64,000 nt of DNA, taken from positions 160,001 to 224,000 of the forward strand of contig CAVQJC010000006.1 in NCBI GenBank assembly GCA_963712745.1, written 5' to 3'. Below are positions 1-19,273 of the stretch, piece after piece. The notes beneath the pieces were generated by a model that worked only from the letters and a program-made list of their open reading frames with translations, made no database searches and was not told the origin of the DNA. This DNA is from an uncultured Chloroflexia bacterium. GTDB lineage: Bacteria > Chloroflexota > Limnocylindria > Limnocylindrales > CSP1-4. The stretch's first letter is position 1. Each line of letters starts with the position of its first letter. A program made the position numbers and the translations under genes.

Positions 1-100
1 GGCGAAGCCGGTGCGCACAGACCACGCCCACTTGCGGATCGCGGCCGGCGCGCTCGCGAATGAGGGCAGCCGCCCGGTCGGCGGCGGCGCGCGTGTCCAT
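1..100 (-). CDS. N-terminal part of a probable purine nucleoside phosphorylase (runs off window)
   Basis: Manual translation MDTRAAADRAAALIRERAGRDPQVGVVC(x)TGF resembles the PNP N-terminus (…IRER…P.IG.ILGSG); TATGCT lies 7 nt upstream of the ATG. Confidence 0.5.
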   Translation of the reverse strand, partial: MDTRAAADRAAALIRERAGRDPQVGVVCAHRLR

Positions 101-202
101 GGCCCACAGCATACGGGCGCGCCGAGGCGGCCGAGACGCCTTGCCGCCCTGGGTGCCGCGAACGTAGACTCGGAGGTGCCACCCCGTCCCAGGAGGTTCC
201 TC

Positions 203-1827
203 GTGAGAAAGGCCCTACCGACCCTGCTGCTGAGCGTGCTGCTGGCAGCGGTCATGGCATCGTTCGCAGCCGTCGTCTCTGCCCAGTCCGAGCCTCAGCG
301 TGGAGGACGGCTCGAGCTCATGGCGGCCAATGACCTGACCACGCTCGACAACAGCCAAGTCCTGGATCTCGACTACAACATGGTCGCCGGAGCCCTCTAC
401 GAGGGGCTCTATCACTTCGACCCGCAGGGCCAGCTCGAGTCGGGCCTGGCCGACGGCATGCCCCGAGATCTCGGACGACGGGCTTATCTACACCTTCAAG
501 ATCAAGCCGGGTGCGATGTTCGCCGGGCCCGACTTCGAGCCTCGCGAGGTGACGGCGGCCGACGTCGCCTACGGCATGACCCGGGCGCTCGACCCGGACC
601 CGGTCGGCGCTCCGTATGCATCCTGGGGCGGCGGCTACCTCTTCCCCATCAAGGGCGCGGCCGAGTTCAACACCGGCGAGGCGGACGCTGTGGAGGGCAT
701 CAAGGTCCTCGACGACCACACCCTGCAGGTCACGCTCACCGAGCCGGCCTCGACGTTCCTGCTGGGTCTCACCATCGCGACCAGCTGGCCGGTGCCGGAA
801 GAAGCGGTGAAGGAACGCGGCGAGGGCTTCGCCAACCGCCCGGTCGGCGCCGGCCCGTTCTTCGTCAAGGAATGGAACAAGGGCTCCGACATCACCATCG
901 CCCGCAACCCCGGCTACGTCGACCCCGACCTGCCCTACCTCGATGAGATCTTCGTCGACCTGGGCGTCGACGAGAACACCCAGAAGCTGCGCCTCGAGTC
1001 GGGCCAGGCGGACGGCGTCTTCGAGCAGTTCGCGCTGTCTCCCCAGTCGCTGCGTGAACTGCGCGATGTACCCACGCTGACGCTGGCCGAGTCGGTCGGT
1101 CCACGCATCTTCTACCTGGCTCTCAACAACGATGGCATCCTCAAGGACAAGGACCTGCGCCAGGCGGTGGCCCAGGCCATGACCACGGACTTCACCGTCC
1201 GCTTCGGCGGGCTGGCCAAGCCCTGGAACCAGCTCATGAGCTCGACCTCCGCGCAATCGGACCCGAACGGGACCATTACCTATGCTCACGACCCCGAGGC
1301 GAGCGGCGGCCCTTCTGGAGTCCGCCGGCTACGACGGAACGCCACTCAAGATCGTCTACGACGTGACCGACCCCTACACCACCCAGAACGCCTCCCAGCT
1401 GACGCAGGACCTGGAAGCCGTCGGCTTCGAGGTCGATGCTCAGGGGGCTGCAGAAGGTCGAGTTCTACAGCGCCATCCTTCGAGCCCGAGGCATTCGACA
1501 TCTCGTCGACCTACTGGAGCGCCGACTACCCCGACGCCCAGGACTTCATCTCCACCAACTTCATCTGCGACACGATCGGCGTCCTCAACATCTCGCGCTT
1601 CTGCGACGAGTCCATCGACAAGGCCTTCTTCGCCACCGAGCGCATGGACTTCGGCCCCAAGCGCGATGCCGCCCTGCGAGACGTCCAGCAGCGGCTCATC
1701 GACGAGCTGGCCGGGGTGCCGGTGATGGAGGTCACGCCGGTGGCCGTGTTCGGCGAGCGGGTCGGCGACATCCCCACGCTGGCCACCTACGCGCCCTTCG
1801 ACTGGAAGCGGGCCTGGGTGAAGGCCG

Positions 1828-1835
<8 letters not shown>
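203..1835 (+). CDS. ABC transporter substrate-binding protein, family 5 (OppA/DppA/NikA-like), frameshifted
   Basis: AGGAGG then GTG at 203; signal peptide; LYEGL…F, VTAADVAY, PVGAGPF…W motifs; coding frame switches between ORFs 11..946, 516..1835, 1282..1725 and 1436..1888. Confidence 0.9.
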
Positions 1836-2831
<996 letters not shown>

Positions 2832-2835
<4 letters not shown>

Positions 2836-3689
2836 TCGGGCCCGTCCTCGCCCCGGCACGCGCGCCGGAGCCGACGCGATGGGGCCTGCGCATCGGCATC
2901 GGCCTGTTGATCGATGCTGGCCTTGCTCGTGGTGCTCTATCCGCTGGTGTCGTCCGTCGATCCCGACGTACGAGTCGGTCGCGGGCCTGACCGAGCTCGG
3001 CGAGCCCCTCGGCCCGGGCGCGGACGGCTATCCCCTGGGCACCGACCCCCGCGGCCGGGACATGCTCGCGCGGGTCATCCAGGCCGGCGGGCTGACCATG
3101 CTCACCGCGCTGTCGGCCGTCGCTCATCGCCACCCTGGCCGGCCTCGCCGTGGGCCTGCTGGCGGCCAACACCAGGCGCTTCGCGGGCTCGGTGCTGATG
3201 CGCTTCACGGACCTGGGCCTGGCCATCCCCGGCCTGCTGCTGGCGGCAGCCATCTCGACCATCCTGGGGCGGGGCACGCTCTCGCTCATCGTGGGTCTGG
3301 CCGCGGTCTTCTGGGCACCGATCGCGCGGGTGACCTACGGCCAGGCCGTGGTCCTGCGCGAGCGGGACTACGTGGAGGCCGCGCGCGTCATGGGCGGCGG
3401 GACCACGACGGTCATGCTGCGGCACATCCTGCCCCACCTGCTGCCGGTGGTCGGCGCCTACGCCGCACTGTCGGTCGGCTGGGCCGTGCTCTTCGAGTCG
3501 GCCCTGGGCTTCCTCGGAGCCGGCGTCCAGGAGCCGCAGGCGTCGATCGGCTCGATGCTCGGTCAGCACCTCATCTACTACCGCAGCCACCCCGCTCTCA
3601 TCGTCATCCCGGCCATCTTCCTGGCCGTGCTCGTCATGGCTGCCAACCTGGTGGGCGAGTCGCTGCGCACCCGCACCGAGGAGCGCTGA
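2832..3689 (+). CDS. Peptide/nickel ABC permease (OppC/DppC-like), frameshifted
   Basis: YPLGTDPRGRDMLARV, DYVEAARVMG (EAA loop), RHILPH, ESALGFLGAG. Confidence 0.88.
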
Positions 3690-4615: not shown

Positions 4616-5404
4616 CTAGCCGGACCGGTCGTGCAGCATCGCGGCCAGCAGCTCCTTCGTATAGGGCTCCCGCGGGTCCTCGAAGACCTCTTCACGCGTG
4701 CCCGTTTCCACGATCCGTCCGTCGCGCATGACCGAGACGCGATGCGCGATATGGCGGACCACCGCGAGGTCATGCGCGATGAACAGGTAGCTCAGGCCGC
4801 GCTCCGCCTGCAGGTCCATCAGCAGGTTGAGGATCTGGCCCTGGACCGAGACGTCGAGGGCGGACACCGGCTCGTCGCAGATGATGAGGTCGGGCTCCAG
4901 GGCCAGGGCCCTGGCGATGCCGACACGTTGCAGCTGCCCCCCGGAGAACGAGGACGGTCGACGGTCACCCAGGACCGGGTCGATACCGACCCGCTCCAGC
5001 AACTCGTCTGCACGGCGATGACGCTCATCGCGGTCATACAGCCGGTGGATGACCCAAGGCTCGGCCACGATGTCGCGGACCCGGAAGCGCGGGTCGACCG
5101 AGGAGAACGGGTCCTGATAGATCAGCTGCATGTGCCGCCGCATCCGACGCAACGCAGCACCCTCCAGAGCGAAGAGGTCCTCACCGCGGAACGTGGCGGT
5201 ACCGGCATCGGGCTCGAGCAGCCGCAAGAGGATGCGTCCGGTGGTGGACTTGCCAGAACCCGACTCACCGACCAGGCCATGCGTCTGGCCCGCATCGACG
5301 CGGACGTCCACGTTCTGCACCGCGCGCACGACGCGCCGTTTCCTTCCCCGGCCGCTGGCGAACGCCTTGGAGAGGCCGCGCGCGTCAAGCAGTAGCTCAC
5401 CCAT
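4616..5404 (-). CDS. Peptide/nickel ABC transporter ATP-binding protein (OppF/DppF-like)
   Basis: GLVGESGSGKST, FSGGQLQRVGIARAL, ICDEPVSALDVSVQ, FIAHDLAVV, PYTKELL. Confidence 0.93.
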   Translation of the reverse strand: MGELLLDARGLSKAFASGRGRKRRVVRAVQNVDVRVDAGQTHGLVGESGSGKSTTGRILLRLLEPDAGTATFRGEDLFALEGAALRRMRRHMQLIYQDPFSSVDPRFRVRDIVAEPWVIHRLYDRDERHRRADELLERVGIDPVLGDRRPSSFSGGQLQRVGIARALALEPDLIICDEPVSALDVSVQGQILNLLMDLQAERGLSYLFIAHDLAVVRHIAHRVSVMRDGRIVETGTREEVFEDPREPYTKELLAAMLHDRSG

Positions 5405-5616
5405 GCGTCGCAGCGTAGCGTCCCCAGGCCGCAGACAGGCCGGGCCGGCGAGCCGACCCGGGCAGATGGGACTCCCGATACCCAACGACCCGGTTGCACG
5501 GTGCTCGATCTCTTCAGCCCGCCCAGCAAGAAGACGGGGGTCGATCGGACCTAGCCCCGATGGCAGGCCACGCGGCCGTCACCGCTGACGATCAGAGCGA
5601 GCCTGCCGCCCCTCTG

Positions 5617-5889
5617 TCAGGACGTCGCCGCGTCGTCGGCTTCCCCCTCCACGTCGATGGAGACGAGGCGAAGGTCGGTCGGCTCGTCGGTCTCGGTGAG
5701 ATGGAGTACGGCACCCTCGGCTGGCGTGCCAGTGGCGTGCTGTTCCCAGTGGAAGCGGAGGGCGTCCTCGGAGACGCGGGCCAGCGCTCCGGCCTCGAGA
5801 TAGACCGAGGTGACGCGAGCGGCCCCGGCCCCCGCGGCTTCTTCCACGACGATGTCCAGGATGCGGTCGACGATGCCGGCTTCGTGCAC
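5617..5889 (-). CDS. hypA: Hydrogenase nickel metallochaperone HypA homologue lacking the Zn-finger
   Basis: MHE N-terminus, V.LE.G.L..V..DALRF, T.AEGA.L, C-terminal L.L.SIDVE; no Cys; GGAGG RBS; downstream of hydrogenase genes. Confidence 0.85.
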   Translation of the reverse strand: MHEAGIVDRILDIVVEEAAGAGAARVTSVYLEAGALARVSEDALRFHWEQHATGTPAEGAVLHLTETDEPTDLRLVSIDVEGEADDAATS

Positions 5890-5996
5890 GTGTACCTCCG
5901 AGAGCGGATGGATGGGGCCGGGCAGGGGCCCTTGTCAGCCGAGAGTCTCGCTGATTGACACCCGGATCGCCTCTGCCGCTGCCCGAGGCGAGGGCC

Positions 5997-6596
5997 TCAG
6001 GCGGGCACCGCCGCCTTGCCCTCGATCAGGGCCATGGCCCTGTCCACCACCTCGGGCACCGCCGCCTCCACGAGCTCGGTCATACCTCCGCCTACGGTCC
6101 AGTAGTCCCCCGCCTCGACGGCCACGATGACCAGGTCAGCCGGCACCTCCAGGCCAAGAGCACGGGCCACATCGAGCGTCTCCAGGATCCCGATGTAGTG
6201 AGGCGAGGAGCCTCGAGGACCATCGAGGTCGCTCTCCTTCAGCTCAAGCACCGTGCCCGGGTCAGCCGCCCCGGTGACGACTGAATCGATGATGATGAGC
6301 CTGGAAGCCCCCACGACCGCGTCGAGCAGGTACATGCCGGTCAGGGCAGTCTCCACGAGCTCGACCCTCCCGACCCGTGGGAGTGCGAAGGCGCGCACCG
6401 TCAACGCCGGGTCGACCGCGTCCTTCGGATCGGCCGGCGTTCCGGCGAGAGCGAGACGTCCGATGAGCGCGCGAGCCGCGACGATGCCCACGCCATCATC
6501 CGAGATCAGCTCGTTGCCCAGGCACAGTACCCGGGTAGACCCACCGACGGCACCGCTCCGCTCGGCGGTGCCGTTACTCGCGGTGGAGACTTCCAT
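5997..6596 (-). CDS. Hydrogenase maturation endopeptidase (HyaD/HycI family)
   Basis: VLCLGNELISDDGVG, LIIIDSV, SSPHYIG motifs; follows large subunit. Confidence 0.92.
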   Translation of the reverse strand: MEVSTASNGTAERSGAVGGSTRVLCLGNELISDDGVGIVAARALIGRLALAGTPADPKDAVDPALTVRAFALPRVGRVELVETALTGMYLLDAVVGASRLIIIDSVVTGAADPGTVLELKESDLDGPRGSSPHYIGILETLDVARALGLEVPADLVIVAVEAGDYWTVGGGMTELVEAAVPEVVDRAMALIEGKAAVPA

Positions 6597-8127
6597 CGGA
6601 GTCGCGGCGGAGCAACGAGACTGGCTCGCCGTCCGAGCCCCGCACCGCCACGATCAGCGGCATGCTCCCAGGAAGGGAGTGAGTGGCACAGGCATGGCAG
6701 GGGTCGTACGCACGGAAGGCCATCTCCACCTTGTTGAGGATGCCCTCGGACACCGTCCCCTTCGAGATCAGCCCCTCTGCCGCCTTCTGCACGCTCATCG
6801 CGATGCGCGCCGAATTGTTCTGAGTTGCGACGATCAGGTTGGCCTTCTCGATGATGCCGCGAGAGTCGGTGACGTAGTGATGGAAGAGTGTGCCGCGAGG
6901 CGCTTCCACCACCCCGACACCCTCGTGCGGCGTCTTGGTGGGCAGGGTACGAACCTCCGGGTCGACGAGCTCCGGGTCGTCAGCCAGCTCCTTGAGGCGC
7001 TCCGCCGCGTAGAGCAGTTCCACGACCCGGGCCCAGTGGTTGGCCAGGGTATGGTGCACCGGCTTGCCGCCGAGCGTGGAGTACATCTCCTCGTACGCCT
7101 CCTGGGCCAGCGGAGTGGCCATGGCGTCAGCGGCATTCAGCCGGGCCAGAGGTGCGACCGAGTAGATGCCGCTCTCAGGACCTTCGGTGAAGCCGTTCCA
7201 GCCCACCGGCTTGAGGTAGCAGAACTTGGTGTATGACCAGGGCTCGACATGCTCCGCCACGATGTCGAGGTAGTCGGCGGCGTCGAAGGTCCTCCATTCG
7301 CTACCCTCGGGACTGACCACGCGGATGCGCCCGTCGTAGAAGTTGGGCCGCACCTGCTCGTCCATGAGTCCCATGTAGTAGGTGCGGTGGGTATAGGCGT
7401 CGGAGACGATCAGGTCGACGTATGCCGGGTTGGCCAGCACGACCGAGTGGAAGAGGTCCAGGGTAAAGCGAGCGAAATCCACCGCATCCGCGGCCGTCTC
7501 CTTGATCTGTGCCTGGTCCTCCGCCGTGACGCGCTTGGCGACGCCCCCCGGCAGCCCGAGGACAGGGTGGATGACCTTCCCGCCCGTCATGGAGATGATC
7601 TCCCGCAGGCGGCGTCGCATGGAGATCACCTTCAGCCCGGCCTCTTCGCCCACGGTGGCGATGACGCCGAGGACGTTGCGTTGGGCGGCTGGCGCCTCCG
7701 GGCCCACGACGAAGTCGGGACCGCCGAGGAAGTAGAAGTGCAGCGCGTGGTCCTCGACCATGAATGCCGAGTAGACGAGCTCGCGAATCTTCTTGGCCGC
7801 CGGCGGTGGCTCTACCTGGTAGAGCGCGTCGAGCGCCTTGGTGGCCGCCATGTGATGCGCCGTCGGGCAGACACCGCAGATGCGGGAGGTGATCTGGGGC
7901 ATGTCCTCGGCAGGGCGGCCCTGGGCGAACTTCTCGAACCCACGCAACTCCGGGACCTGGAAGTAGGCACGATCCACGTCCCCCGCCTCGTCGAGGAAGA
8001 TGTCGATCTTGCCGTGCCCTTCGAGGCGGGTGATGGGATCGATGGTGATGCGGCGTCGGGCGTAGGCAGTCTGGGCCCCCTGGGAACCTCGCTGCCATGC
8101 TTCCTGGGTGGTCATCTCATCGGGCAT
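6574..8127 (-). CDS. mvhA: [NiFe] hydrogenase large subunit, MvhA-type (group 3c)
   Basis: DPITRLEGHGKI, RGFEKF, SRICGVCPTAH (L1), RAYDPCHACATH (L2) plus cleavable C-terminal extension; synteny with mvhG/mvhD/hdrA. Confidence 0.93.
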   Translation of the reverse strand: MPDEMTTQEAWQRGSQGAQTAYARRRITIDPITRLEGHGKIDIFLDEAGDVDRAYFQVPELRGFEKFAQGRPAEDMPQITSRICGVCPTAHHMAATKALDALYQVEPPPAAKKIRELVYSAFMVEDHALHFYFLGGPDFVVGPEAPAAQRNVLGVIATVGEEAGLKVISMRRRLREIISMTGGKVIHPVLGLPGGVAKRVTAEDQAQIKETAADAVDFARFTLDLFHSVVLANPAYVDLIVSDAYTHRTYYMGLMDEQVRPNFYDGRIRVVSPEGSEWRTFDAADYLDIVAEHVEPWSYTKFCYLKPVGWNGFTEGPESGIYSVAPLARLNAADAMATPLAQEAYEEMYSTLGGKPVHHTLANHWARVVELLYAAERLKELADDPELVDPEVRTLPTKTPHEGVGVVEAPRGTLFHHYVTDSRGIIEKANLIVATQNNSARIAMSVQKAAEGLISKGTVSEGILNKVEMAFRAYDPCHACATHSLPGSMPLIVAVRGSDGEPVSLLRRDSDGSLHRE

Positions 8128-8140
8128 GTCTCTGGGCTCC

Positions 8141-9123
8141 TCAGGCGTCGACGGGAGTCATCTTGCGCCGGCGCAGCAGTGAACTGGCCAGGCCATAGCG
8201 GTAGAACGTGCCGATGGGGTCAGGGATGCTGTCGAGGGCGGAGTCGATATCCTCGTCCTCGAGGGCCGAGAGCATCGAAGCCACGGCCGACAGGTACTTG
8301 CCACCCTGGTCGTGCACCCTGCTGGTGGGACCGAAGCAGCCGGTACAGGGCATGTTCCCGTTGATGCACAGCTGGCCGCAGCCCGCCCTGGTGGCCGGTC
8401 CCATGCACAACAAACCCTGGGCCAGCAGGCAGGTCTCCTCGTCGATGAGGACCTCGTGGGGACGCAGGAAGCGCTCCAGGCTCAGGTCCTGCGGCTTGGA
8501 CTCGAGGCGGGGGCACTCCTCGCACAGGGAGATGTCTGGCGTCAGGACCGTCCCCGCGGGCGGCAGGTCGCCGCTCAGCAGCGTCTGGACCGCATCGGCG
8601 ATGACGTTCGGCGTGGGCGCGCAGCCCGGGATGTAGTAGTCCACCGACGTGACCTGGTCGAGGACCTGGACCGTTTGGTAGAAGCCGGGGAGGGTCAGCG
8701 TACTCGCCGTTGTGCGGCGTCTTGACCGACGGCAGGACGCCGTCCGGATTGTCGGTCGACGACGTTGTCGAGGTAGACGGCCTGGAAGATGTCATCCCGG
8801 TCCCACAGGTTGGCGAGGGCAGGGATGCCACCGAGATGGGCGCAGGAGCCGAAGGCCACCAGCACCTTCGATTTCCGCCGCAGCAGGTGGGCCATCTCCT
8901 CCTGCTCGGTGGTGCGGATGGAGCCGTTCACGAAGGCGGCCAGGATGGACCCGTCCTCCATGGCCTCCACATCGGCCTTCTTGAAGTCAAGTGCCACCGG
9001 CCAGAAGACGATGTCGACCGCGGCGACCACGTCGAGGATCTGCTCGGCGAGGTCAACGATGGCCTCTTCGCAGCCCCCGCATGAGGAGCACCAGTAGAAG
9101 GCGACCTTCGGCTTGTCGCTCAT
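8141..9123 (-). CDS. mvhG: [NiFe] hydrogenase small subunit, MvhG-type, frameshifted
   Basis: WCSSCGGCE, VAFGSCAHLGGIP, YYIPGCAP, LCEECP, CLLAQGLLCMGPATRAGC…C…PCTGCFGP; frame changes near 8650-8770. Confidence 0.9.
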
Positions 9124-9608
9124 GCCGTCACCTCCGCCAGCTCTGCGACTTCGGAGAACTCCTCGGCCGGCACTTCCACGTGCAGCGGCCCGAGCTCGTT
9201 CAGGTGCTCCACCATGTCGTTCATCACGTCGCGCAGCTTGTCGGCCTCGGCGGCGGAGATCCACTCGAGGCGGATGCGTTCCTCCTCGATGCCCATGCCC
9301 ACCAGGACCCGCTTCAGCAGCCGGAAGCGGCGCGCCGCCTTGTGGTTGCCCGACTGGTAGTGGCAGTCGCCGAAGTGGCAGCCGCCGATGAGCACGCCGT
9401 CGGCACCGTTGGCGAACGCTTCCATGACGAACTGGGGGTCGACCCGGCCGGAGCACATCACCCGGATGACCCGCGCGTTCGGTGCGTACTTCATGCGCGA
9501 GGTGCCGGCCAGGTCGGCCGCCAGGTAGGTGCACCAGTTGCAGAAGAAGGCGACGATCTTCGGCTCCCAGCCGGCGCCGTCCTGCGGCACTGCGTTCGGT
9601 TCAGACAT
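9120..9608 (-). CDS. mvhD: Hydrogenase iron-sulfur subunit MvhD (2Fe-2S)
   Basis: IVAFFCNWCTY, IRVMCSGRVDP, GGCHFGDCHY, RLEWISAAE. Confidence 0.95.
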   Translation of the reverse strand: MSEPNAVPQDGAGWEPKIVAFFCNWCTYLAADLAGTSRMKYAPNARVIRVMCSGRVDPQFVMEAFANGADGVLIGGCHFGDCHYQSGNHKAARRFRLLKRVLVGMGIEEERIRLEWISAAEADKLRDVMNDMVEHLNELGPLHVEVPAEEFSEVAELAEVTA

Positions 9609-11594
9609 GTGCCAGCACCCCCAGGATCTCCTCGTAGATCTCTTCGTCCTCGAACAGGTTCTGCCGGATCGATCCGGACGGGCAGGCGGCGACGCAGACG
9701 CCACAGCCCTTGCAGAGCACCGGGTTGATCTCCGCCTTCTCGTCCACCCGGGTGATGGCCGTGTAGGGGCAGAGCGGGATGCAGGTCTTGCAGCCCGAGC
9801 ATTCCTCCGTCACCACGTACGCGGTGTTGGGCTCCATCTCGACATAGCCACGGTCGATCAGGGCCAGCGCCTCGGAGGCGGCGGCCCCGGCCTGGGCCAC
9901 GGTGTCGGGGATGTCCTTGGGCCCCTGGCAGGCGCCGGCGAGGAAGATGCCGTCCGTGAACGTGCTCACCGGAGCGAGCTTCGGGTGGCGCTCCATGAAG
10001 AAGCCGCCCGAGGCGCAGGTGATGTTGAAGGTGCGGCGAACGTCCTCGGCGTCGGCCTGCGGCTCCAGGCCGGTCGCCAGGACCAGCATGTCGACGGGGA
10101 TCTTGCGCACCCGGCCGAGCAGCGTGTCCTCCGCCTGAAGGATCACCCTCCCGGTGTCACCGTCCTCCGGGTACACGTCGCGCTACCTTGCCCCGGATGA
10201 AGTGGACCCCCTCCTCGGCGACCCGGTTGTAGAACTCCTCCATGCCCTTCCCGGCCGCGCGGATGTCGATGTAGAAGTTGTAGATCTCCGCCCCGGTCTT
10301 CTCCTTGACCAGGTGCGCCAGCTTCAGGGAGTACATGCAGCAGACACGGGAGCAGTACTCGTTGGTGTTGACGTCGCGACTGCCGATGCAGTGGACGATC
10401 CCCACCGTCTTCGGCGTCCGGCCGTCGCGCAAGGTAACGTGCCCCTCGGTCGGACCCGACGAGTTCACCAGCCGCTCCAGCTCCAGGGCGGTGTAGACCT
10501 CTGGGTAGGCTCCGTAGCCGTACGTCGGGAGTCCGCTTCGGGTCGAAGGTCTTGAAGCCGGTGGCGAGGATGACCGCGCCGACCTCGACCGTGTCGAACG
10601 TCTCCGTCTGCGTGAAGTCGATGGCGTTGCGGTCGGCGCAGACCTCCACGCAGGTCTTCTTGCAGCGACCGCTCTTGAATTCGATGCAGGCCTCCTGGTC
10701 GATGACCACCAACGGCGGCACGGCCTGGGGGAAGGGGATGTAGACCGGCTTGCGCATGCTCAGGCCGAGGTTGAACTCGTCGGGGGTCTTGCCCACCTTG
10801 TAGACGCAGGCGTCGATGCACTCGAGACAGCCGACGCAGGCGTCCTCGACGATGAAGCGCGGCTTGTGGCGCACGGTCACCGTGTAGTTGCCCACGTAGC
10901 CGTCGACGTTGTCGACCTCGGCCATCGTCCACAGCGTGATGTTGGGGTTGGAGCGCACCTCGGTCATCTTCGGAGTGAGGATGCAGGCGGCGCAGTCGAG
11001 CGTCGGGAAGGTCTTGTCGAACTGGGCCATGTGCCCGCCGATCGATGGCTCCCGTTCGACGAGGTAGACATGCTTGCCGGCGTTGGCCATGGTCAGGGCG
11101 GCGTGGATGCCGGCGATGCCGCCGCCCACGACCATCACCGCCGGCGTGACATCGACCCGCTGCCGCTCGAGCGGCTTGTGGAAGCGCACGCGGTGGACGG
11201 CGGCGCGGATGAGGTCCTTGGCCTTGAAGGTCGCCTCGTTCATGTCGATGTGGACCCAGGCATCCTGCTCCCGGATGTTCACCATCTGGAAGAAGTAGGG
11301 GTTGAGGCCGCCCTCCGATGTGGCTCGGCGGAAGGTGGTCTCGTGGAGGCTGGGCGAGCAGGAGGCGACGACGACCCGGTCGAGGCCATTGGCCTTGATG
11401 TCCTCCTTGATGAGCTCCTGGCCGGGGTCGGAGCACATGTACTTGTAGCCCCGGGCCACCGCCACGCCGGGGAGGCCCTCGGCGAACTGGCGCACCGCTT
11501 CCACGTCGACCGTAGCGGCGATGTTGGTGCCGCAGTGGCAGACGTAGACCCCGATCTTCGGCTGGCCGTTACCGTTCGTGTCGGCCCGGTTCAT
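9601..11594 (-). CDS. hdrA: Heterodisulfide reductase subunit A family flavoprotein, frameshifted
   Basis: IGVYVCHCGTNI, VVGGGIAG, KTFPTLDCAACIL, HCIGSRD…YCSRVCCMYSLK, GACQGPKDIP, two C-terminal CxxCxxCxxxCP; shifts near 10530 and 10180. Confidence 0.93.
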
Positions 11595-13605
11595 GTGCCG
11601 CTCCTCTGCGCTGCGCCGATCGTCTCTTCCACGACCGTGGTCTCTTCCACGACCGTGGTCTCTTCCACGCCCATGGTCTCTTCCACTAGCTCCACGATGT
11701 CCCGGATGACGAGCGATCCTTCCAGCTCTGTGGTCTTGAGAGCATCACGGAACATGACGAGGTCCTTGGGGCAAGCCACGACCATGGTGGTGACCCCCTG
11801 AAGGCCGGCAGCCTCGCGGACGCGGCTCTCGGCCGGTCGCTCACCGCCGGACGCGGTGTCCTCCATCCAGATCCGCCCGCCACCGGCCCCGCAGCAGTAC
11901 GCGGACGAGCGGTTGCGCGGCATCTCCACCAGCTCGAGCCCCAGCTGCTTCAGGACGCTGCGCGGGGCCTCGTAGACGCCTCCATAGCGGCCTAGGTAGC
12001 ACGGGTCGTGGTAGGTGACCCGGGCGCCGGGGTTCGGGGAGAAGGCGAGGCGGCCCGACGAGATGAGCTCGTCGAGGACCTCGGTGTAGTGCTTGACCTG
12101 CCCATCCAGCCCGTATTCATGCTTGAGGACGAAGTAGGTATGCGGGTCCGTCGTCACGATGGTCTTGAACTGCGATGACTCGAGGGCCGCCGAGTTCTTG
12201 TCCTTCAGCATCTCGAAGAGGCCTTCTTCGCCGAGGCGGCGGATGTCGTTGCCGGCGTTCTGCTCGGCGTCGTAGAGGATCCCGAAGTCCAGGGCCGCTC
12301 GATCGAAGACGCGGGCTGCTGCTCGAGTGACCTCCTGGACCCGAGGGTCGAACGACGCGTAGTCGCCGACGTACCAGAGGTACTCGACAGGCTCCTTGCG
12401 GGCGTCGCGGACCTCGAAATCCAGGTCCCGCGTCCACTTGGGCCGACTGCGCGGCGACTGGCCGAACGAGTTGCCATAACGGGTCATGCCCATGAGCATG
12501 TCCTGGACCCCGGTCCCGACGGCCCCCTCGCCCATCAGATGCCGCCGCATCTGGACGATGAGTGGGACGTGTTCGTTGAAGACGGGGCAACGCTCCATGC
12601 AGGCCATGCACGTCGTGCAGGACCAGATGGCCTCAGGGCCTACCGTATCGATGAGACTCCCCTTCCCGTCACCGTCCGCCGCAGCGAGGACCATCCGCCT
12701 GACGTCATGGATAAGGTCCCGGGGCGAGAGCACCCGCACCGGAGGCGAACGCCGGACAGGCCCGGTCGCAGCGACCACACTCGGCACAGGCGAGGCCGTT
12801 GAACAACTCCCGCCAGGTGAAGTCCTCCAGTCGTGCGGCTCCCTCTGATGGCAGCGGCGTCATCGCCAGGGTCCAGGGAGGCAGTGAAGACGTTGAACGG
12901 CGAGGCCAACAAATGGAGGTGCTTGGAGTACGGCAGGTAGGCCAGGAAGCCCAGCACTGCGAGCATGTGCACCCACCACATCGACAGATACAGCGACTCG
13001 GCAGTCGCTGTAGAGATGCCGCCGAGCCACGAACCGATCAACTCACCGATCGGGCTCCCGCTCACGGCCTCCGGTTCGGCGGCGGCCTTCGCCCCCTGGC
13101 CGACGAGGAAGGTCACCATGAGGAGCGCGATGAGCACGAGGATGAACCCGGCGTCCCGAGACAGCGTCAGTCGCGGCGGCGGGAAAGCGAACCGGCGAAC
13201 GGCCACTCCGGCTAGTGCGACCAGGGTGGCCACGCTCAGCAACTCCATGGGGAAGGTGATCCATGGCACTTCGTCGGCGTACGGGATCGGCAGGAACGGG
13301 AACAGGCCCCGGAGGAGATTCCAGGCGAAGCTGCCCGCGTAGAAGATGAAGGTCCAGAAGATGATGAGGTGGGCCAGCCCCATCCCGAGGTTATCGAACA
13401 TGCGGCGCTGGCCCGCCACGTTGACCACGACGTTCCAGAGCCGGCGCGGGGCCTGATCCCAGCGCGGTTCAGCCCTCCCTCGGCCGACCGTGGTCAGGAT
13501 CATGTAGGCCCGCCGCCCGAAGATGACGCCAACCACCAAGGTGATCGCCCACAGGTAGACGAAGCCGGGGATGCCGAGGTAGGTCGTCGTGGTCGGATCC
13601 GGCAT
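11591..13605 (-). CDS. Membrane-anchored Fe-S oxidoreductase (NarI/HdrE-like heme-b membrane domain + 2x4Fe-4S + CCG domains; HdrF/FadF/EMO-like), frameshifted
   Basis: Five TM helices with AHLIIFW, WWVHML, PYSKHLH; CAECGRCDRACP; WSCTTCMACMERCP; TYHDPCYLGR; CCGAGGG; shifts near 12860 and 12740. Confidence 0.88.
11622..11686. repeat. In-frame 18 bp tandem repeat (about 3.6 units) encoding VEETxx
   Basis: gtctcttccac starts at 11622, 11640, 11658 and 11676. Confidence 0.9.
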
Positions 13606-13610
13606 CGGTG

Positions 13611-14586
13611 CTACCCCTTCCGCTTCCTGACCGCCTCCGCCAGCGCCTCCAGGACGTCGGTGGCATCCTCGACGTAGCCGTAGTGCGCGACCGAGAAGAT
13701 GGGGGCATCAGGGTCGGTGTTGACGGCGATGATCGAGATCGGCGTCTCGCATGCCCTCGACGTGCTCGGGAGCGCCGCTGATGCCTGCCGCGACGTACAG
13801 TCGCGGTTTCACGGTCACGCCGGACTTCCCGACCTGGCGCGCGAGTGGGAGCCACGCCTGGTCGATCACCGGCCGCGAGCCACAGACGGCCCCGCCCAGC
13901 ACATCGGCCAACTCCTGGGCGACTTCGAGATTGGCCTCCATGCCGATGCCTCGGCCTACCGAGACGAGGACATCCTGTTGGGCGATGTCGACGTCGCCGA
14001 CCTCTGGGGCTTCGAACTCGAGCAGGCGTACGCGGGAGTCATCGGCCAGCTCGACCGACACATCCTCCACCACAGGCTCGGTGGTACCTCGGCCTGCATC
14101 GGGTGGTCTCGTCCCGGGCATGACAGCGAACACCGTGGGCGCGGACTCGGCCGTCACCGTCACGGCCATCTTCCCGCCGTACAGCAGGCTGGTGGCCTGT
14201 AGCACACCGTCGACCACCGCGACGTCCTGGCAGAAGTTGACGAATGGGGCCTCGAGTCGCCCAGGCAGCAGCCCGAGCAGGTCCCAGCTGACGTTCGTGG
14301 CCGGTACCAGGAGTGCTGCAGGGGTGCGGTCTGCAGCCAGCGAGGCGAGCGCGCGGCTGGTCTGTTCGCCGGTGGCATCGGCGAGGACGGCATGGTCGAC
14401 GTAGAGGACCGCATCGGCCACGCCCAGTGACGCGGACAACTCTCGTATCCCGTGGCCGAGCAACGTGGCCTCGAGACGCACGCCAAGCGAATCGGCCAGC
14501 TCGCGCCCGAGCGCCAGGGTCTCGTATGTGACGTCCGAGATCTCACCCTTCCAGTGATCGACCACCACCCATACGTTGCCTGTCAT
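13611..14586 (-). CDS. etfA: Electron transfer flavoprotein alpha subunit, frameshifted
   Basis: [43 protein letters not shown]; after shift near 13735 continues [18 protein letters not shown]. Confidence 0.93.
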
Positions 14587-14597
14587 GTGCATCTCCA

Positions 14598-15379
14598 TCA
14601 GAGCAGACCCCGGTCAGCCAGGAGGTCGGCGACCTTCTCGGCCACGTCCGGCACCGATCCCTCGAGCATCTCTGCATGCCCGGTCACGGTGGGCTTGGCC
14701 ATGGCCGTGACCCGGACCGCATCCGCTGACTGTTGCGCTCACGGCTGTGGCGTCCTCGATGCCCCCCGAAGCCATGGCGGCTCGGACCTTGGCGATCGGG
14801 ACATAGCGCGGTGGCTTCTCACAGCCCTGGACGCCGATGAAGGCAGGAAGGGCGATCTCGAAGCGTCCCATCACGCCGCCGGCGTATTCCTTGGACGCGA
14901 CGGCCACCCCGGCGCCGGGTGCGACCGCGATGCGACTGACCAGGCCCAGGTATGGCAGGTCGAGCGCCGAGGCGAGGAGCGGCGCCGTGAACCCGTCGAG
15001 ATCGTCGATGGCCTGGCAGCCGCTGAGCACCATGTCCGCTGGGAGCGACATCGGGGATGCTGGGGAGCGTGGCGGCCAGCGTGGCGGCCAGGGAGCGGGA
15101 GCCCGCGCCGTCGGCGGCCCCCGAGACTTTGACTACGCGGTCGGCGCCCTTGGCCAGCGCGGTATAGAGCACGTCATCGACCTCGGGCGCTTCCGGCGCC
15201 ACCACGGTCACGTTCGCCTCCAGGCGATCCTTCAGGAGCAGCGCCTGCTCCAGGGCATAGTCGTCGCGCTCGTTGACGATGAACCGCAGGTACTCCTGGT
15301 CGAGCGAGGTGCCGTCACCGGCGACCTCCAGCTCCTCCACGATGTCGGGCACCATCTTCATCAGGACTAGGATCTTCAT
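14598..15379 (-). CDS. etfB: Electron transfer flavoprotein beta subunit, frameshifted
   Basis: MKILVLMKMVPD, DDYALEQALLLK, ALAKGAD, GCQAIDD, KPPRYVP across frames. Confidence 0.9.
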
Positions 15380-15427
15380 GGCGCCAGCACTTCCTCCTTG
15401 CGCGGCCTTGCCTCGGATCTTGGTCGG

Positions 15428-16627
15428 TCAGTCATCTAGTGCCTCGGCGACCAGCTCCATCACGTCCCGTACTACCATGCGGTCGTCGTACCCAAGCACC
15501 TTCAGGGAGTCCTCGAAGCGGGGAACCTCGTAGGGGCAGGACACCGCCAGCACGTCCGCGCCTGTGGCGATGGCCTCTGCCACCCGGCGGTCGGACAGAC
15601 GAGGATGTCCCTTGGCCTTGTAGTGGGTGTCGAGCCACATCCCGCCACCGCCACCACCGCAGCAGATGGTGTCGTCCCGGTTGTGGGTCATCTCGACGAG
15701 GCTCACGCCGGGCAGGGCCTCTAGGATGCGGCGCGGCTCATCGTGCATGTGGTTGTGCCGGCCAAGCACGCAGGAGTCGTGGTACGTGATCCGGTACCCG
15801 AGCTCCCGGGTAAGGCGCGGCTTGAGGGCGTCGAGATGGTTCGCCAGGAACGGTGTGGTGTGGTGCACGGGGCGATCCAGCCCGAGGGCCGGATACACGT
15901 AGCTGAAGGCATCGAAGGCGTGCGGATCCGAGGTGAGCAGCGAAGCGTACGCGTACTTCCCGAAGGTGGCCATGTTCTGTTCCCGCAGGGTGTCGAACAG
16001 GCCTCGCTCGCCCGCCAGGCGGGCACACTCCCCGGCGCACTTCTCCTCGGCCCCCAGGATGGCGAAGTCGATCCCGAGGGTAGCCAGGACCCGTGCGGTG
16101 GCCCGTGCGTTGTCCTGGCCGCGCGGGTAATACGCGGCGTAGCACTCGACGACCCACAGCACGTCGACTGGCCGACCCAGGTCGCGCAGGATAGGGACCG
16201 GCACCTCCGCGCTTTCTGTCCAGGCCGCCCTCTTGCGCGGCGATTCACCCATCGGGTTGCCGTAGCGCATCGTGTTCGAGAGCGCGCTCTGCAACTCCGC
16301 GGGCACCTCGGGGAGCTGGATCAGCAACTGCTCCTTGACCACGGGTAGGAGGACATCGGTGAGGTGGAGACCACGAGGGCACTTGGCCCAGCAGTCATAG
16401 CAGGTGACGCAGCTGAGCAGGTCGTCGCTGTTGATCACCTCGTCGATGAAGCCCTCCCGCAGCATGCCGATGAGGCGGCGCGGGGTGAAGTGCATCACGT
16501 CGCCATAGGGGCATGCGCCGGCGCAGGTCCCACACTGGATGCAGCTCAGCAGCGGCCGGCCCTCGGGCGAGGAGAGGAGACCGTCGAGCGTGAGGTCCGG
16601 GGTCTCAAGCATGGTCGCCGTTGCCAT
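15428..16627 (-). CDS. Soluble HdrD-like Fe-S protein (HdrC-like ferredoxin + two CCG domains)
   Basis: CIQCGTCAGACP, CVTCYDCWAKCPRG, EEKCAG, TYHDSCVLGR, CCGGGGGG, VSCPY. Confidence 0.88.
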   Translation of the reverse strand: MATATMLETPDLTLDGLLSSPEGRPLLSCIQCGTCAGACPYGDVMHFTPRRLIGMLREGFIDEVINSDDLLSCVTCYDCWAKCPRGLHLTDVLLPVVKEQLLIQLPEVPAELQSALSNTMRYGNPMGESPRKRAAWTESAEVPVPILRDLGRPVDVLWVVECYAAYYPRGQDNARATARVLATLGIDFAILGAEEKCAGECARLAGERGLFDTLREQNMATFGKYAYASLLTSDPHAFDAFSYVYPALGLDRPVHHTTPFLANHLDALKPRLTRELGYRITYHDSCVLGRHNHMHDEPRRILEALPGVSLVEMTHNRDDTICCGGGGGGMWLDTHYKAKGHPRLSDRRVAEAIATGADVLAVSCPYEVPRFEDSLKVLGYDDRMVVRDVMELVAEALDD

Positions 16628-16920
16628 CGGTCGCTCCCCACTGTTCATCGATCTGGGCCGGCCGCCGCTCACGCGGGCTTGATGACCGTCCCGTTCTATC
16701 AGGGCGAACCTGCCGATCCGTTCTCGACCGACCAGGGCGCCGGTTGCGGTAACTTGGATTGCGCGGGGGGGAACGTATCGAGTCTCAGTGGCGCTGCACG
16801 GCTGCAAACAGTGCCGATAGGACCTCGTGGCCCGGGCCGAAGGCAACGGGAAGGTCGATCCGCCCATGATGGCCGCCGGAACCGATCGATCGGACTCGCC
16901 ACATGAAACGTCGCCACCAC

Positions 16921-16982
16921 GGTTGGCACCCTCACCGGGGTTGGCATCCTCATCAGGCTCCGTCGCGTCGTCGGCGTATAGT
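16921..16982 (+). promoter_or_regulatory. 18 bp direct repeat (x2) followed by a TATAGT -10 element; candidate activator site for the second hypA
   Basis: ggttggcaccctcaccgg / ggttggcatcctcatcag at 16921 and 16939; TATAGT at 16977-16982. Confidence 0.45.
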
Positions 16983-17081
16983 GGAGCGAGGTCGTCGACA
17001 TGGCTGTCCTCGACGACGCGACGGGGGTACTGGGCCGCATCGCGTATGCGTGGCCCGACATCACCAGAGGGGGGTCCGTGA

Positions 17082-17348
17082 ATGCATGAAGCCGGCGTGA
17101 CCGAACGCATCCTGGAGATCGTCCTCCAGCACGCGAAGGAAGCCCACGCCACACGGGTGACCGACGTCTACCTGGAGGTGGGCGAGGAGTCGGGTATCGA
17201 CACCGACTCCGTCGAGCTCCACTGGCCGCTCCTCGCGGAAGGCTCCGTGGCCGAGGGCTCGATCCTGCACTTCGACACCAAGGAGGATGAGCCGTTCTCC
17301 TTCCGACTGACCAGCATCGAGGTCGACGAGGCAGTCGTCGCCGGCTGA
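17082..17348 (+). CDS. hypA: Second HypA homologue lacking the Zn-finger
   Basis: MHEAGVTERILEIV…VTDVYLEVGE…AEGSILHF…FRLTSIEVD; no Cys; clearly paralogous to 5617..5889. Confidence 0.85.
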   Translation: MHEAGVTERILEIVLQHAKEAHATRVTDVYLEVGEESGIDTDSVELHWPLLAEGSVAEGSILHFDTKEDEPFSFRLTSIEVDEAVVAG

Positions 17349-17431
17349 CACGACTGGGCGCGTCTCCCCTGCGCCCGGCTGAAGGACCGCAGAAGCAGCC
17401 CCTCGGGCCGGCCCGCGGGGCTCGTCCATGC

Positions 17432-19273
17432 CTAGGGTTCGGACTCCCTGGGCAGCGGCACGAAACGAACCGCATCGAACGCCACGCGCCGGCCGAGCGA
17501 GCCACTCTCGCCGGTCTTGTCGATGAGCTGGACGACCGAGGTCGGGGTCAGCTGGTGGACGCCCAGGCCGACCCAGCGGCCAGCACCCTTCTGCTGGTCA
17601 CGGGTCCTCCTGACCCAGCCGTCGGGTGTCCTGATCTTGTAGGTGGCGCTGCGAGTGGCAGCGTCCTGGCGTGGGATGTGGGCGAGGACCTGGTAGCGGC
17701 CGGCCGGCAGCTCCGGCCTCCAGACGGCATACCGCTCCCGAGTCCCGACCCTCGTGGGCGCCCAGAAGTGATGATCGGCGTAGCCGCTGGTCGCCTGTCG
17801 CCAGCCCGATCCGTAGCGGCGGAACCCTGGGTCGAGATCGTCGACATAGACCGTCACCGGCTCCGGAGCGCAGCGCTCTGCGAGCGCGCCCGCGTCGAGC
17901 CGTCCTCCACTCACGGTCAGTCCCGCCAGCGAGTCCGTGGCCGCAGCGGTCTCGATGAGCCGCGCGTGGATCTGACGCGCCGTCAGGGCCGGGTCGAGGC
18001 TGGCACACAGGGCCGCGGCTCCACTGACGTGAGCCGCGGCCATGCTGGTGCCGGTGTAGCCGGCGTAGCCCTCGACCCCATCGGGGTGAGTGCTGCTGAT
18101 GCCCGTGCCCGGCGCGCCCAGGTCCACGCCCGCTGCACCCCAGTCCGAGTCGGGACGCCGAGCTCCGTCCGGCTGCAGGTTGGCCACGGCCATGAGGCAG
18201 TCCCAGCCGCGGTCGCTGCCGTCGGCACGTGTGGCACAGCGGTAGGCCGCCGGATACACGGGCGCGCGGTCGATATCCCGGCCCTCGTTCCCGGCCGCGG
18301 CCACGAACAGGATGTCGGCATCGCCGGCACGGGCGATGGCGTCGGCAAGCGCCTCACTGTGGCCACCTCCGCTCCAGCTGTTGTTGGTGGCCACGACACG
18401 CAGGCCGTGACGCAGCTTGAGGTCGGTGATGTAGTCGAGCGCCGCGATCGCGTCGCTGATGTACCCACCGCCGGGGCCCATGAACCTGGCCGGGATGAGC
18501 GTCACGCGCCAGCTCACGCCGGCCACACCGCGGCCGTTGCCGCCTCGAGCGCCGATGGTGCCCGCCACGTGAGTTCCGTGATCGTCGGCCGCACCGTGGT
18601 AGACGGTGGCGTCGCCGCCGAGGAAGTCCCAGCCATGGATGTCGTCGATGTAGCCGTTGCCATCGTCGTCGCGTCCGTTGACGGACTCCCATGGGTTGGT
18701 CCAGACGTTCGGCTCGAGGTCCGGGTGCGTGATCTTGACACCCTCGTCGACGATGCCCACGTGGACCCCGGCCGAGCCGATGCGACCGTCCGCCCAGGCT
18801 TCGCCGGCGCCTGTACCGAAGGCGTTGGCGTGCGGCACGGTCCCGTCGCCGTACATGCCCCAGAGATCGCCCCTGGCGTACCACGGGTCGTCGGCGGTAG
18901 CCGCCGGCCACACCCGGTAGTCCGGCTCCACCCATGCGACGCCCCGGCGTGCGCCGATGCTCAAGAGGGCGGAACCCACGGAGGTACCGCGCACCAGGCG
19001 CACCACCGCCGTGTCCTCCGCCAGGGGCGAGACCGGTCGCCCGGCCGAGGTGCCGGCGGCTGAGACGGCGAGCTTCCTCTTCGCCTTGGAGGCTCCGGCC
19101 TTGAACCCGACGATGACGCGATCGGGAGCGTGTGGTCGGGCCAGGGCCCTGGCCACGCCGGCGTCGTCAGCGCTGGCCACAGCGGCTGCTGCCACCGGGG
19201 CAGCCAAGGCGACCAGCAGGAGTCCGGCCAGGAAGGGACGGCGAGCGTGCGGCCGCGTGGCAGACGTGTCCAT
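17432..19273 (-). CDS. Secreted S8 subtilisin-like serine protease with C-terminal golvesin/Xly CBM-like domain
   Basis: Signal peptide; GIVDEG, DHGTHVAGTI, AAAGN, GTSMAAAHV; NGRDDDGNGYIDDIHGWDF; C-terminal GRYQV…GRWVGLG…VAFDAVRF. Confidence 0.9.
   Translation of the reverse strand: MDTSATRPHARRPFLAGLLLVALAAPVAAAAVASADDAGVARALARPHAPDRVIVGFKAGASKAKRKLAVSAAGTSAGRPVSPLAEDTAVVRLVRGTSVGSALLSIGARRGVAWVEPDYRVWPAATADDPWYARGDLWGMYGDGTVPHANAFGTGAGEAWADGRIGSAGVHVGIVDEGVKITHPDLEPNVWTNPWESVNGRDDDGNGYIDDIHGWDFLGGDATVYHGAADDHGTHVAGTIGARGGNGRGVAGVSWRVTLIPARFMGPGGGYISDAIAALDYITDLKLRHGLRVVATNNSWSGGGHSEALADAIARAGDADILFVAAAGNEGRDIDRAPVYPAAYRCATRADGSDRGWDCLMAVANLQPDGARRPDSDWGAAGVDLGAPGTGISSTHPDGVEGYAGYTGTSMAAAHVSGAAALCASLDPALTARQIHARLIETAAATDSLAGLTVSGGRLDAGALAERCAPEPVTVYVDDLDPGFRRYGSGWRQATSGYADHHFWAPTRVGTRERYAVWRPELPAGRYQVLAHIPRQDAATRSATYKIRTPDGWVRRTRDQQKGAGRWVGLGVHQLTPTSVVQLIDKTGESGSLGRRVAFDAVRFVPLPRESEP

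Follow-up and report, generated by a model that had tools for sequence, protein, structure and literature searches.

The stretch of DNA analysed here (the window) comprises 64 000 nucleotides of contig CAVQJC010000006.1 from an uncultured Chloroflexia bacterium (NCBI GenBank assembly GCA_963712745.1). At 5997–16627 it carries nine co-directional genes on the minus strand; going by their coordinates, neighbouring genes either overlap or are separated by no more than about 50 nt (Table 1). Read along the coding strand, these genes encode a soluble HdrD-like protein, the two subunits of an electron-transferring flavoprotein (ETF), a membrane Fe–S protein of the EtfD/EMO type, a full-length HdrA, the MvhD, MvhG and MvhA subunits of a [NiFe] hydrogenase and a maturation protease. 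An earlier note on this DNA, made from the letters alone, had named the nine genes with their order and common direction, and all of them were found as described using open reading frames (ORFs), Pfam and relatives; the strings that it quoted (LELER, CCMYSLK, EEKCAG and EQNAGN) are all present in the translated sequence. Its account of genes, order and motifs stands, but it did not see that the frame is broken in five of the nine genes. Alignment with the intact genes of five relatives (L003, L005, L006, L007 and L011) revealed nine single-base insertions, because of which etfB, etfA, the membrane gene, hdrA and mvhG each span two or three frames. The assembly leaves an unbroken frame to four genes alone (hdrD-like, mvhD, mvhA and protease), and the identities of the broken genes were taken from their intact orthologues in L005. 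That the stretch is one functional operon, encoding a group 3c hydrogenase on a bifurcation-type HdrA together with a unit of HdrD-like protein, ETF and EtfD that would feed menaquinone, is in our judgement a proposition with an even chance of being right.

Table 1. Genes of the nine-gene cluster and single-base insertions located in them (window coordinates).
Feature	Position	Strand	Evidence
HycI-type hydrogenase maturation protease (199 aa, intact)	5997–6596	minus	PF01750, E 9.2e-12
mvhA, predicted group 3c [NiFe] hydrogenase large subunit (517 aa, intact)	6574–8127	minus	PF00374, 9.8e-40; motifs ICGVCPTAH, AYDPCHACATH
mvhG, [NiFe] hydrogenase small subunit (three frames)	8141–9126	minus	PF01058, 2.1e-14
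mvhD (intact)	9120–9605	minus	PF02662 FlpD, 2.9e-54
hdrA, full-length methanogen-type flavoprotein (three frames)	9601–11594	minus	L005 orthologue versus 8RVU, 5ODC
EtfD/EMO-type membrane/Fe–S/CCG protein	11591–13605	minus	PF02754, 3.1e-18; L005 orthologue versus 9OJN
etfA, ETF large subunit, FAD domain (two frames)	~13611–14598	minus	L005 orthologue versus PDB
etfB, ETF small subunit (three frames)	~14598–15379	minus	L005 orthologue versus PDB
Soluble HdrD-like/sHdrB3-like protein (399 aa, intact)	15428–16627	minus	ORF, Pfam CCG matches
Insertions in etfB	~15048 and ~14727		
Insertion in etfA	~13735		
Insertions in the membrane gene	~12861 and ~12736		
Insertions in hdrA	~10530 and ~10181		
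Insertions in mvhG	~8771 and ~8698		

The hydrogenase half of the cluster is of a well-defined type. The two motifs of MvhA fit the group 3c patterns given for MvhA in PMC6085437 (ICGxCxxxH for L1 and AYDPCxxCATH for L2), and the genes for MvhG and MvhD adjoin that of MvhA. MvhAGD is accordingly classed, on its motifs and neighbours, as a predicted cytoplasmic group 3c [NiFe] hydrogenase. The HdrA of L005 (663 aa) aligns over residues 10–658 with residues 10–651 of PDB entry 8RVU (E = 1.5e-216), and entry 5ODC is matched at 3.1e-212; the three hdrA pieces of the window are 87–94% identical to this orthologue. It has the make-up of a full-length HdrA, with the N-terminal cluster, the flavin domain, and the inserted and C-terminal ferredoxin domains. 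Moreover, alignment with methanogen HdrA bears out that the Glu in LELER and the Lys in CCMYSLK are retained, as claimed before, in addition to the Cys-rich motif. With an alignment offset of 8 these two residues correspond to Glu356 and Lys409 of 5ODC, which we take to flank the flavin.

The window thus resembles the methanogen MvhAGD–HdrABC complex (5ODC and 8RVU) in its group 3c MvhA, its MvhG and MvhD, and an HdrA that aligns end to end and retains the Cys-rich motif, the Glu and the Lys. The order hdrA-mvhD-mvhG-mvhA is also that of 35 bacterial hdrCBA-mvhDGA loci described below. Unlike the methanogen complex, the window has no stand-alone HdrB or HdrC and encodes instead a fused HdrC/HdrB protein, an ETF and a membrane EtfD/EMO. 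CoM/CoB metabolism would not be expected in this bacterium. Many bacteria that are not methanogens and do without CoM-S-S-CoB also have group 3c hydrogenases with HdrA, which raises the question of what takes their high-potential electron. The operon offers a concrete answer, in which the fused HdrC/HdrB protein would be followed by ETF, and ETF by a quinone reductase of the EtfD/EMO type.

The soluble HdrD-like protein begins with an HdrC-like part containing two four-cysteine ferredoxin motifs, followed by two CCG domains (Pfam matches at C6:175533–175790 and C6:175920–176156). Its L005 orthologue is closest to the soluble part of EtfD (9OJN, 1.4e-48), and its N-terminus to HdrC (about 1e-16). 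Thirteen orthologues from several phyla have in common the eight cubane cysteines together with C162, C197, C201, H236, C286, C322, C323 and C364. From this pattern of invariant residues, the first CCG domain is degenerate (EEKCAGEC, and DPHA in place of CPxC) and the second is nearly complete, the conserved cysteines leaving a single complete site for a non-cubane cluster. The protein is 44–49% identical to the B3 protein of type II sulfur-oxidising Hdr-like (sHdr) clusters. It shows the features by which sHdrB3 is recognized, namely an HdrC/HdrB fusion with one non-cubane site, encoded ahead of etfB, etfA and emo, and is on this basis a relative of sHdrB3; we refer to it below as the B3-like protein.

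The ETF encoded next to it shows no sign of being a bifurcating one. The L005 EtfB (259 aa) has as its best match the AMP-containing W3A1 ETF (1O94_C, 2.3e-26), and EtfA matches CarE (6FAH, 4.5e-48) and 1O94_D (7e-38). In the part of PMC8958531 that treats the zipper of bifurcating EtfB, the motif DGDTAQ is reported for 216 ETFs with 100% D, 95% G, 85% D, 100% T, 86% A and 93% Q. The peptide that aligns with DGDTAQ of 4KPU_B (A. fermentans) is DDLDGF (window 14724–15044; L005:2790–3569), which is not a full match to the canonical DDDSNQ either. We rejected a bifurcating ETF (group 2, with two FAD) on account of this zipper, and the EtfBA of the operon is predicted to be of the non-bifurcating kind.

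The membrane protein of L005 (655 aa) matches the EtfD of M. smegmatis (9OJN, 1.4e-66) in three collinear stretches, which correspond to the membrane part, the two-cubane domain and the CCG domain. With an N-terminal membrane part of the cytochrome b type, two cubane motifs and a CCG/NCB domain, and with its gene adjoining etfA, it is predicted to be an ETF:menaquinone oxidoreductase of the EtfD/EMO type; the conserved histidines seen in the alignment with 9OJN are putative haem ligands only. Like the EtfD of mycobacteria and the EMO of Syntrophus aciditrophicus, with which it aligns across all domains, it is encoded next to etfBA. Unlike them, it lacks the cysteines of the distal cluster (D1/FeS4), at whose positions GDY, EQNAGN and TDPHT are found, as well as the long disordered C-terminus, and its gene lies in a hydrogenase operon and not with genes of beta-oxidation. 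Loss of the D1 cysteines has also been reported for FadF and DgcB in the EtfD structure paper. In the EtfD/EMO structures the CCG/NCB clusters dock ETF and pass on electrons from its flavin, and do not reduce disulfides (PMC13083937; bioRxiv 10.64898/2026.08.18.745454). The view that the degenerate CCG motifs of the window argue against disulfide reduction, put forward in the earlier note, is in agreement with these electron-transfer clusters.

We then asked how widely the two halves are found together. A search with MvhA gave 591 relatives, and the best 80 loci were sorted by layout. The layout of the window was found in 21 of these 80, and six more are probably of the same type, with an EtfD-type gene directly upstream of hdrA at the point where the locus ends. 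Thirty-five loci have the canonical order hdrC-hdrB-hdrA-mvhDGA, in which an HdrC of 190–290 aa and an HdrB of about 290 aa are encoded directly upstream of hdrA (verified by Pfam on L018, where a MarR gene stands in front); a further 15 have no hdrA in the locus and three are cut at hdrA. The ETF unit is thus present in 21 (and probably six more) of the 62 resolvable MvhA loci, and its carriers belong to the Chloroflexota, Actinomycetota, Acidobacteriota and Ignavibacteriota. In the MvhA tree the ETF layout is scattered among canonical loci, with 17 changes, at least six of which are forced by well-supported branches, which argues that the unit has been gained or lost repeatedly. The MvhA of the window falls in a well-supported clade of ten, mostly labelled Chloroflexota, all of the ETF type where this is visible.

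The converse search, from the HdrD-like protein, led to the same association. Used as a single protein, it returned close relatives only (18 loci); as an alignment, it returned 501 relatives and 77 new loci. The whole operon is present in every one of the 15 close loci that have room for it. At the 77 distant loci, ETF genes were found in 67 and a full-length HdrA in 47, the HdrD-like gene standing directly upstream of hdrA in 17; Mvh genes are present in 30, many of the others being cut by the 10-kb flank. The earlier note had proposed that its reading should fall if the etf/membrane and mvh/hdrA halves rarely co-occur. They co-occur in both directions, and their association is for this reason robust. 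The nine-gene operon type is common to many uncultured soil and sediment bacteria.

Some loci show the same parts in other orders. In L012, L026, L060, L067, L024, L035 and L052 (mostly Gemmatimonadota), mvhA is immediately preceded by hdrC-hdrB; the last three of these loci have hdrA-mvhD-mvhG another 4–5 kb upstream, following an EtfD-type gene, with the parts the same but their order changed. In L044, L049 and L056 the best hdrA match comes after etfD and is followed by hdrC and hdrB, with mvhD about 3 kb further on; the gap could fit a second copy of hdrA.

The distant loci also connect the operon with sulfur-oxidising Hdr clusters. At 20 of the 77 there is only a short, distant HdrA-like gene and no hydrogenase. 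The order in L165 is DsrE, hdrC1, a 405-aa CCG protein (hdrB1), a 356-aa flavoprotein, hyp, the HdrD-like gene (434 aa), etfB, etfA, emo and a lipoate ligase (LplA), and loci of this kind are assigned by their gene content to the type II sHdr cluster shdrC1B1AH-B3-etfAB-emo. In PMC11094781, sHdrB3 is presented as a fusion of sHdrC2 and sHdrB2 that binds one non-cubane cluster only, and its proposed place beside sHdrA is that of C2B2, in an asymmetric model HdrAA'-C1B1-B3; the EtfAB and EMO of the type II system are proposed there to direct electrons to menaquinone. The window shares with this system the four-gene unit B3-etfB-etfA-emo in the same order, a B3-like protein likewise with one non-cubane site, and the proposed role of the unit, electron transfer between an HdrA complex and menaquinone. 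The differences lie in the genes that accompany the unit: in the window these encode a [NiFe] hydrogenase and a methanogen-type HdrA of 663 aa, whereas in type II sHdr they are those for a short sHdrA (356 aa), sHdrC1B1 and DsrE/TusA, and lipoate genes. Electrons would enter the quinone pool from H2 in the former case, and not from sulfane sulfur. Examination of ORFs and Pfam matches found none of shdrC1, shdrB1, a short sHdrA, the hyp gene, DsrE/TusA or lipoate-binding genes in the operon, and because of this, and of the 663-aa type of its HdrA, we do not file the window as an sHdr system. In the tree of B3 proteins the rows from an sHdr context form nearly one clade (two changes for 20 rows, a value as low in none of 500 shuffles), so that the hydrogenase-linked B3-like proteins form a sister subfamily. 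The shared B3–EtfAB–EMO unit suggests a portable 'quinone outlet' for different HdrA machines.

The wiring best supported by the order of the genes, by the precedent of type II sHdr and by the docking of ETF at the CCG clusters of EtfD/EMO is as follows. H2 would be oxidised at MvhA, and its electrons would reach the flavin of HdrA via MvhG and MvhD. From HdrA the low-potential electron would pass to ferredoxin, the presumed second acceptor, and the high-potential electron would leave by way of the HdrC-like clusters in the B3-like protein. From the CCG domain of this protein it would pass to the flavin of an ETF docked there, and ETF would deliver it to EtfD/EMO and from there to menaquinone, if the flow has this direction. 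We tentatively propose, giving it somewhat less than an even chance, that in bacteria without HdrBC, as this one would be, the B3-like protein alone fills the place of HdrBC on HdrA, with ETF as a shuttle between this protein and EtfD/EMO, and that the enzyme is an H2:ferredoxin/menaquinone bifurcating hydrogenase. If so, it would make low-potential ferredoxin from H2, paid for by respiratory quinone reduction, which would tie flavin-based H2 bifurcation directly to the respiratory chain and give the group 3c hydrogenases, which are widespread among bacteria of soils and sediments, the high-potential acceptor that has long been missing.

We modelled the complex of HdrA (residues 135–663) and the B3-like protein, each given as a 12-row alignment. 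The ipSAE is 0.84, compared with 0.00 for the best control; the mark applied is reached by 58 of 80 solved complexes and by two of 110 mismatched pairs. The three runs share at least 97% of their contacts, with a pLDDT of at least 89 for the partner. At the modelled interface, the first cubane motif of the B3-like protein (30–39 and 82–86) is placed against the Cys-rich stretch 402–409 of HdrA. Modelling of HdrA with the HdrD-like protein had been suggested in the earlier note as a check, and the pair passes. The idea behind it, that the high-potential arm of HdrA runs through the HdrD-like protein and ETF to quinone, gains from this model as well as from the co-occurrence and the sHdr precedent, but HdrBC is still alive as a partner (see below).

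The remainder of the genome, which is 84.55% complete, fits the proposed wiring. It encodes a haem-copper oxidase and two PFOR-type ferredoxin enzymes. A fused EtfB–EtfA (630 aa) adjoins a canonical ETF-QO (527 aa) on C11 (L085:2447–5916) and constitutes a second, separate route from ETF to quinone, so that the ETF/EtfD of the operon would be an extra, dedicated set. Two further cytoplasmic [NiFe] hydrogenases are encoded at L082:5051–9389 (C20) and L084:1893–6051 (C17), one with NuoF/NuoG-like diaphorase genes (3d-like) and the other with a Fer4_22/NAD-binding subunit (3b-like), which brings the group 3 hydrogenases of this organism to three. PF02621 of the futalosine pathway was not found in the genome; the classical pathway was not searched, and at this degree of completeness we draw no inference on menaquinone from the result.

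A related idea has been voiced for other Chloroflexi. A 2021 preprint (bioRxiv 10.1101/2021.08.23.457424), as far as its available excerpts go, describes Chloroflexi in which the genes of a group 3c hydrogenase come after those of HdrABC and, 'in some cases', ETF, with bifurcation as the suggested function. As here, a group 3c hydrogenase, Hdr genes, EtfAB, HdrD and an ETF-quinone component are considered there as a possible bifurcating system. Those excerpts amount to a passing genomic note on Anaerolineae and Dehalococcoidia in which HdrB2C2 are present, and, unlike the present work, they neither relate the association to sHdrB3/EMO nor survey it across phyla or put it to a test. New here are the evidence from reads for an assembly artefact, the synteny counts in both directions, the counts of HdrBC presence and absence, the homology to the B3–EtfAB–EMO unit of sHdr and the complex model.

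Several observations weigh against the wiring proposed above. The modelled interface resembles that of the solved HdrA–HdrC complexes (5ODC and 8RVU), and the pass may for this reason show likeness and not binding; the model also leaves the HdrC-like domain of EtfD in play as an alternative to the B3-like protein. No biochemical work on the combination of hydrogenase, HdrA, ETF and EtfD was found in the literature. Contigs from RNA runs match parts of the operon exactly, and one crosses the hdrD-like/etfB junction (15268–15491), which proves neither transcription nor a single transcript. Lastly, HdrBC may be the true or a second partner of HdrA: hdrC-hdrB genes accompanied by a phosphorelay stand directly upstream of the operon in eight of 16 close relatives, hdrCB lies inside the locus in eight of the 21 loci of the window type, an HdrB or HdrB-like gene was found in ten of 15 genomes with such a cluster, and HdrBC may be lacking here because roughly 15% of the genome is missing. 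A promoter and terminator scan of 5400–17600 yielded no promoter-like and two terminator-like sites, not above shuffles, and is uninformative on transcription units.

These last findings lead to an alternative in which HdrBC is still part of the machine: an HdrA dimer would be flanked by HdrC–HdrB and, at the opposite side, by the B3-like protein, with hdrCB located in the unassembled part of the genome. HdrB would then turn over some thiol or disulfide while B3–ETF–EtfD links to quinone, exactly the asymmetric make-up proposed for type II sHdr in PMC11094781. In the relative G001 (L086:5968–11101), the unit upstream of the operon consists of a Cache/HAMP histidine kinase, a hybrid kinase/receiver, a receiver protein, HdrC (196 aa) and HdrB (289 aa). 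Five genes of matching sizes are found apart from the operon in two more genomes (L087 and L088), Pfam having been run on one of the three only. This histidine kinase/hybrid kinase/response regulator-hdrCB unit was not found in the genome of the window as assembled. In L017, L044, L049 and L056, hdrCB lies between etfD and hdrA. The counts that speak for this alternative have their counterparts, since 13 of the 21 window-type loci do without hdrCB and the HdrB query was negative in five of the 15 genomes; moreover, the B3-like gene directly precedes hdrA at the 17 distant loci mentioned above. In the window the only genes with CCG domains are the two of the cluster, in agreement with the remark of the earlier note that no stand-alone hdrB or hdrC is present there, and neither the Pfam CCG search nor two HdrB queries revealed a stand-alone HdrB or HdrC in the 84.55%-complete genome. 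The claim of a cluster 'without HdrB/HdrC' holds for the assembled genome and for about one third of the carriers, but not as a property of the cluster type. We consider the participation of HdrBC unlikely on balance, albeit a serious contender.

Two candidates for a hidden HdrB or HdrBC in this genome were rejected. The only CCG gene outside the cluster is a 963-aa fusion of an FAD-oxidase with a CCG domain at C6:131.5 kb, and a second Hdr-like locus on C17 is a Qmo-like set without a CCG domain. The latter (L081:2077–9116; C17:320–327 kb) comprises a pair of HdrA-like flavoprotein genes (one apparently split) together with a membrane gene of the Fer4/NarI type, with TusA upstream and a hemerythrin downstream.

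The same complex might also operate mainly in reverse (confurcation), with electrons from ETF/menaquinol and from reduced ferredoxin meeting at HdrA to form H2 in fermentation or in syntrophic fatty-acid oxidation. Bifurcation of the HdrA type is reversible in principle, and the EMO and ETF of syntrophs handle the electrons of acyl-CoA oxidation. The two PFOR-type enzymes, which would make reduced ferredoxin, and the two other cytoplasmic group 3 hydrogenases point in this direction, as does the near-identical DNA in estuary and sediment metagenomes. We nevertheless regard such a mode as improbable: formation of H2 from menaquinol and ferredoxin would be feasible only below about 1 Pa H2 (an estimate from standard potentials, for which we assumed the value of H2), the operon contains no acyl-CoA dehydrogenase, and ordinary beta-oxidation has the separate ETF/ETF-QO set of the genome at its disposal. 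The potentials used in this estimate for menaquinone (−74 mV) and ferredoxin (about −450 mV) are those quoted in PMC10734219.

It is very unlikely, in our view, that the two halves are mere neighbours without an electrical link, B3–EtfBA–EtfD serving some other donor (sulfur- or acyl-linked) and HdrA–Mvh some other acceptor. The B3-etfBA-emo unit is admittedly portable, since type II sHdr pairs it with another set of flavoproteins, and ETF is a promiscuous carrier. Yet the halves recur together in many phyla and several gene orders, the stop of etfD overlaps the start of hdrA, the operon offers no other HdrC-like partner for HdrA, and the HdrA/B3-like model passes.

The frame breaks are almost certainly consensus errors of the assembly and not gene decay. 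They were shown by a stop-free segment map, a GC3 frame plot and a codon-model Viterbi segmentation, and the codon bias persists in the shifted frames of the broken genes. All nine events are +1 insertions, with no frame-shifting deletion or stop codon in the cluster genes in the alignment with the five relatives. The pieces downstream of the breaks are 85–94% identical to the relatives, and still 91–94% after two shifts. Throughout the genome there are 599, 751 or 950 frameshift-like transitions depending on the filter, with insertion-like to deletion-like events in the ratios 424:175, 540:211 and 616:334 for the three filters, and rates that vary about five-fold among contigs. In addition, public short-read contigs from estuary and sediment metagenomes are 98–100% alike over 300–700 nt of the operon and are one base shorter at 8698/8699, 8760, 10526 and 14728; the base is missing in every public contig covering 8698/8699, 10526 and 14728, and those across 12736 and 15048 have one gap each.

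That the operon is a decaying pseudogene cluster in which the nine insertions are real is scarcely credible, although nine breaks within 10.6 kb place it in the top 2.8–4.8% of the genome's windows of that size (others reach 20–27 events) and sites 13735, 12861 and 10181 have no read evidence among the contig matches listed, because the events are all +1 insertions without stops, deletions or excess substitutions, identity and codon bias are kept past the shifts, the same insertion-biased pattern is found across the genome, and the extra base is absent from near-identical public contigs.

With so many insertion errors in the assembly, gene calls are fragmented in the window. Six further frameshift-like transitions, mostly insertion-like, were seen on the plus strand of window positions 1–3200 (at 462, 1308, 1965, 2286, 2955 and 3120); the first 16 kb of the window are an error-dense stretch of the assembly, and the remaining 48 kb contain five or six such events.

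Upstream of the operon, about 800 nt (16628–17431) show no clear coding signal, and beyond them lies a 613-aa subtilisin-like gene on the minus strand (17432–19273). Since none of 18 close relatives has such a gene at that place, the upstream neighbourhood of the operon differs in this genome.

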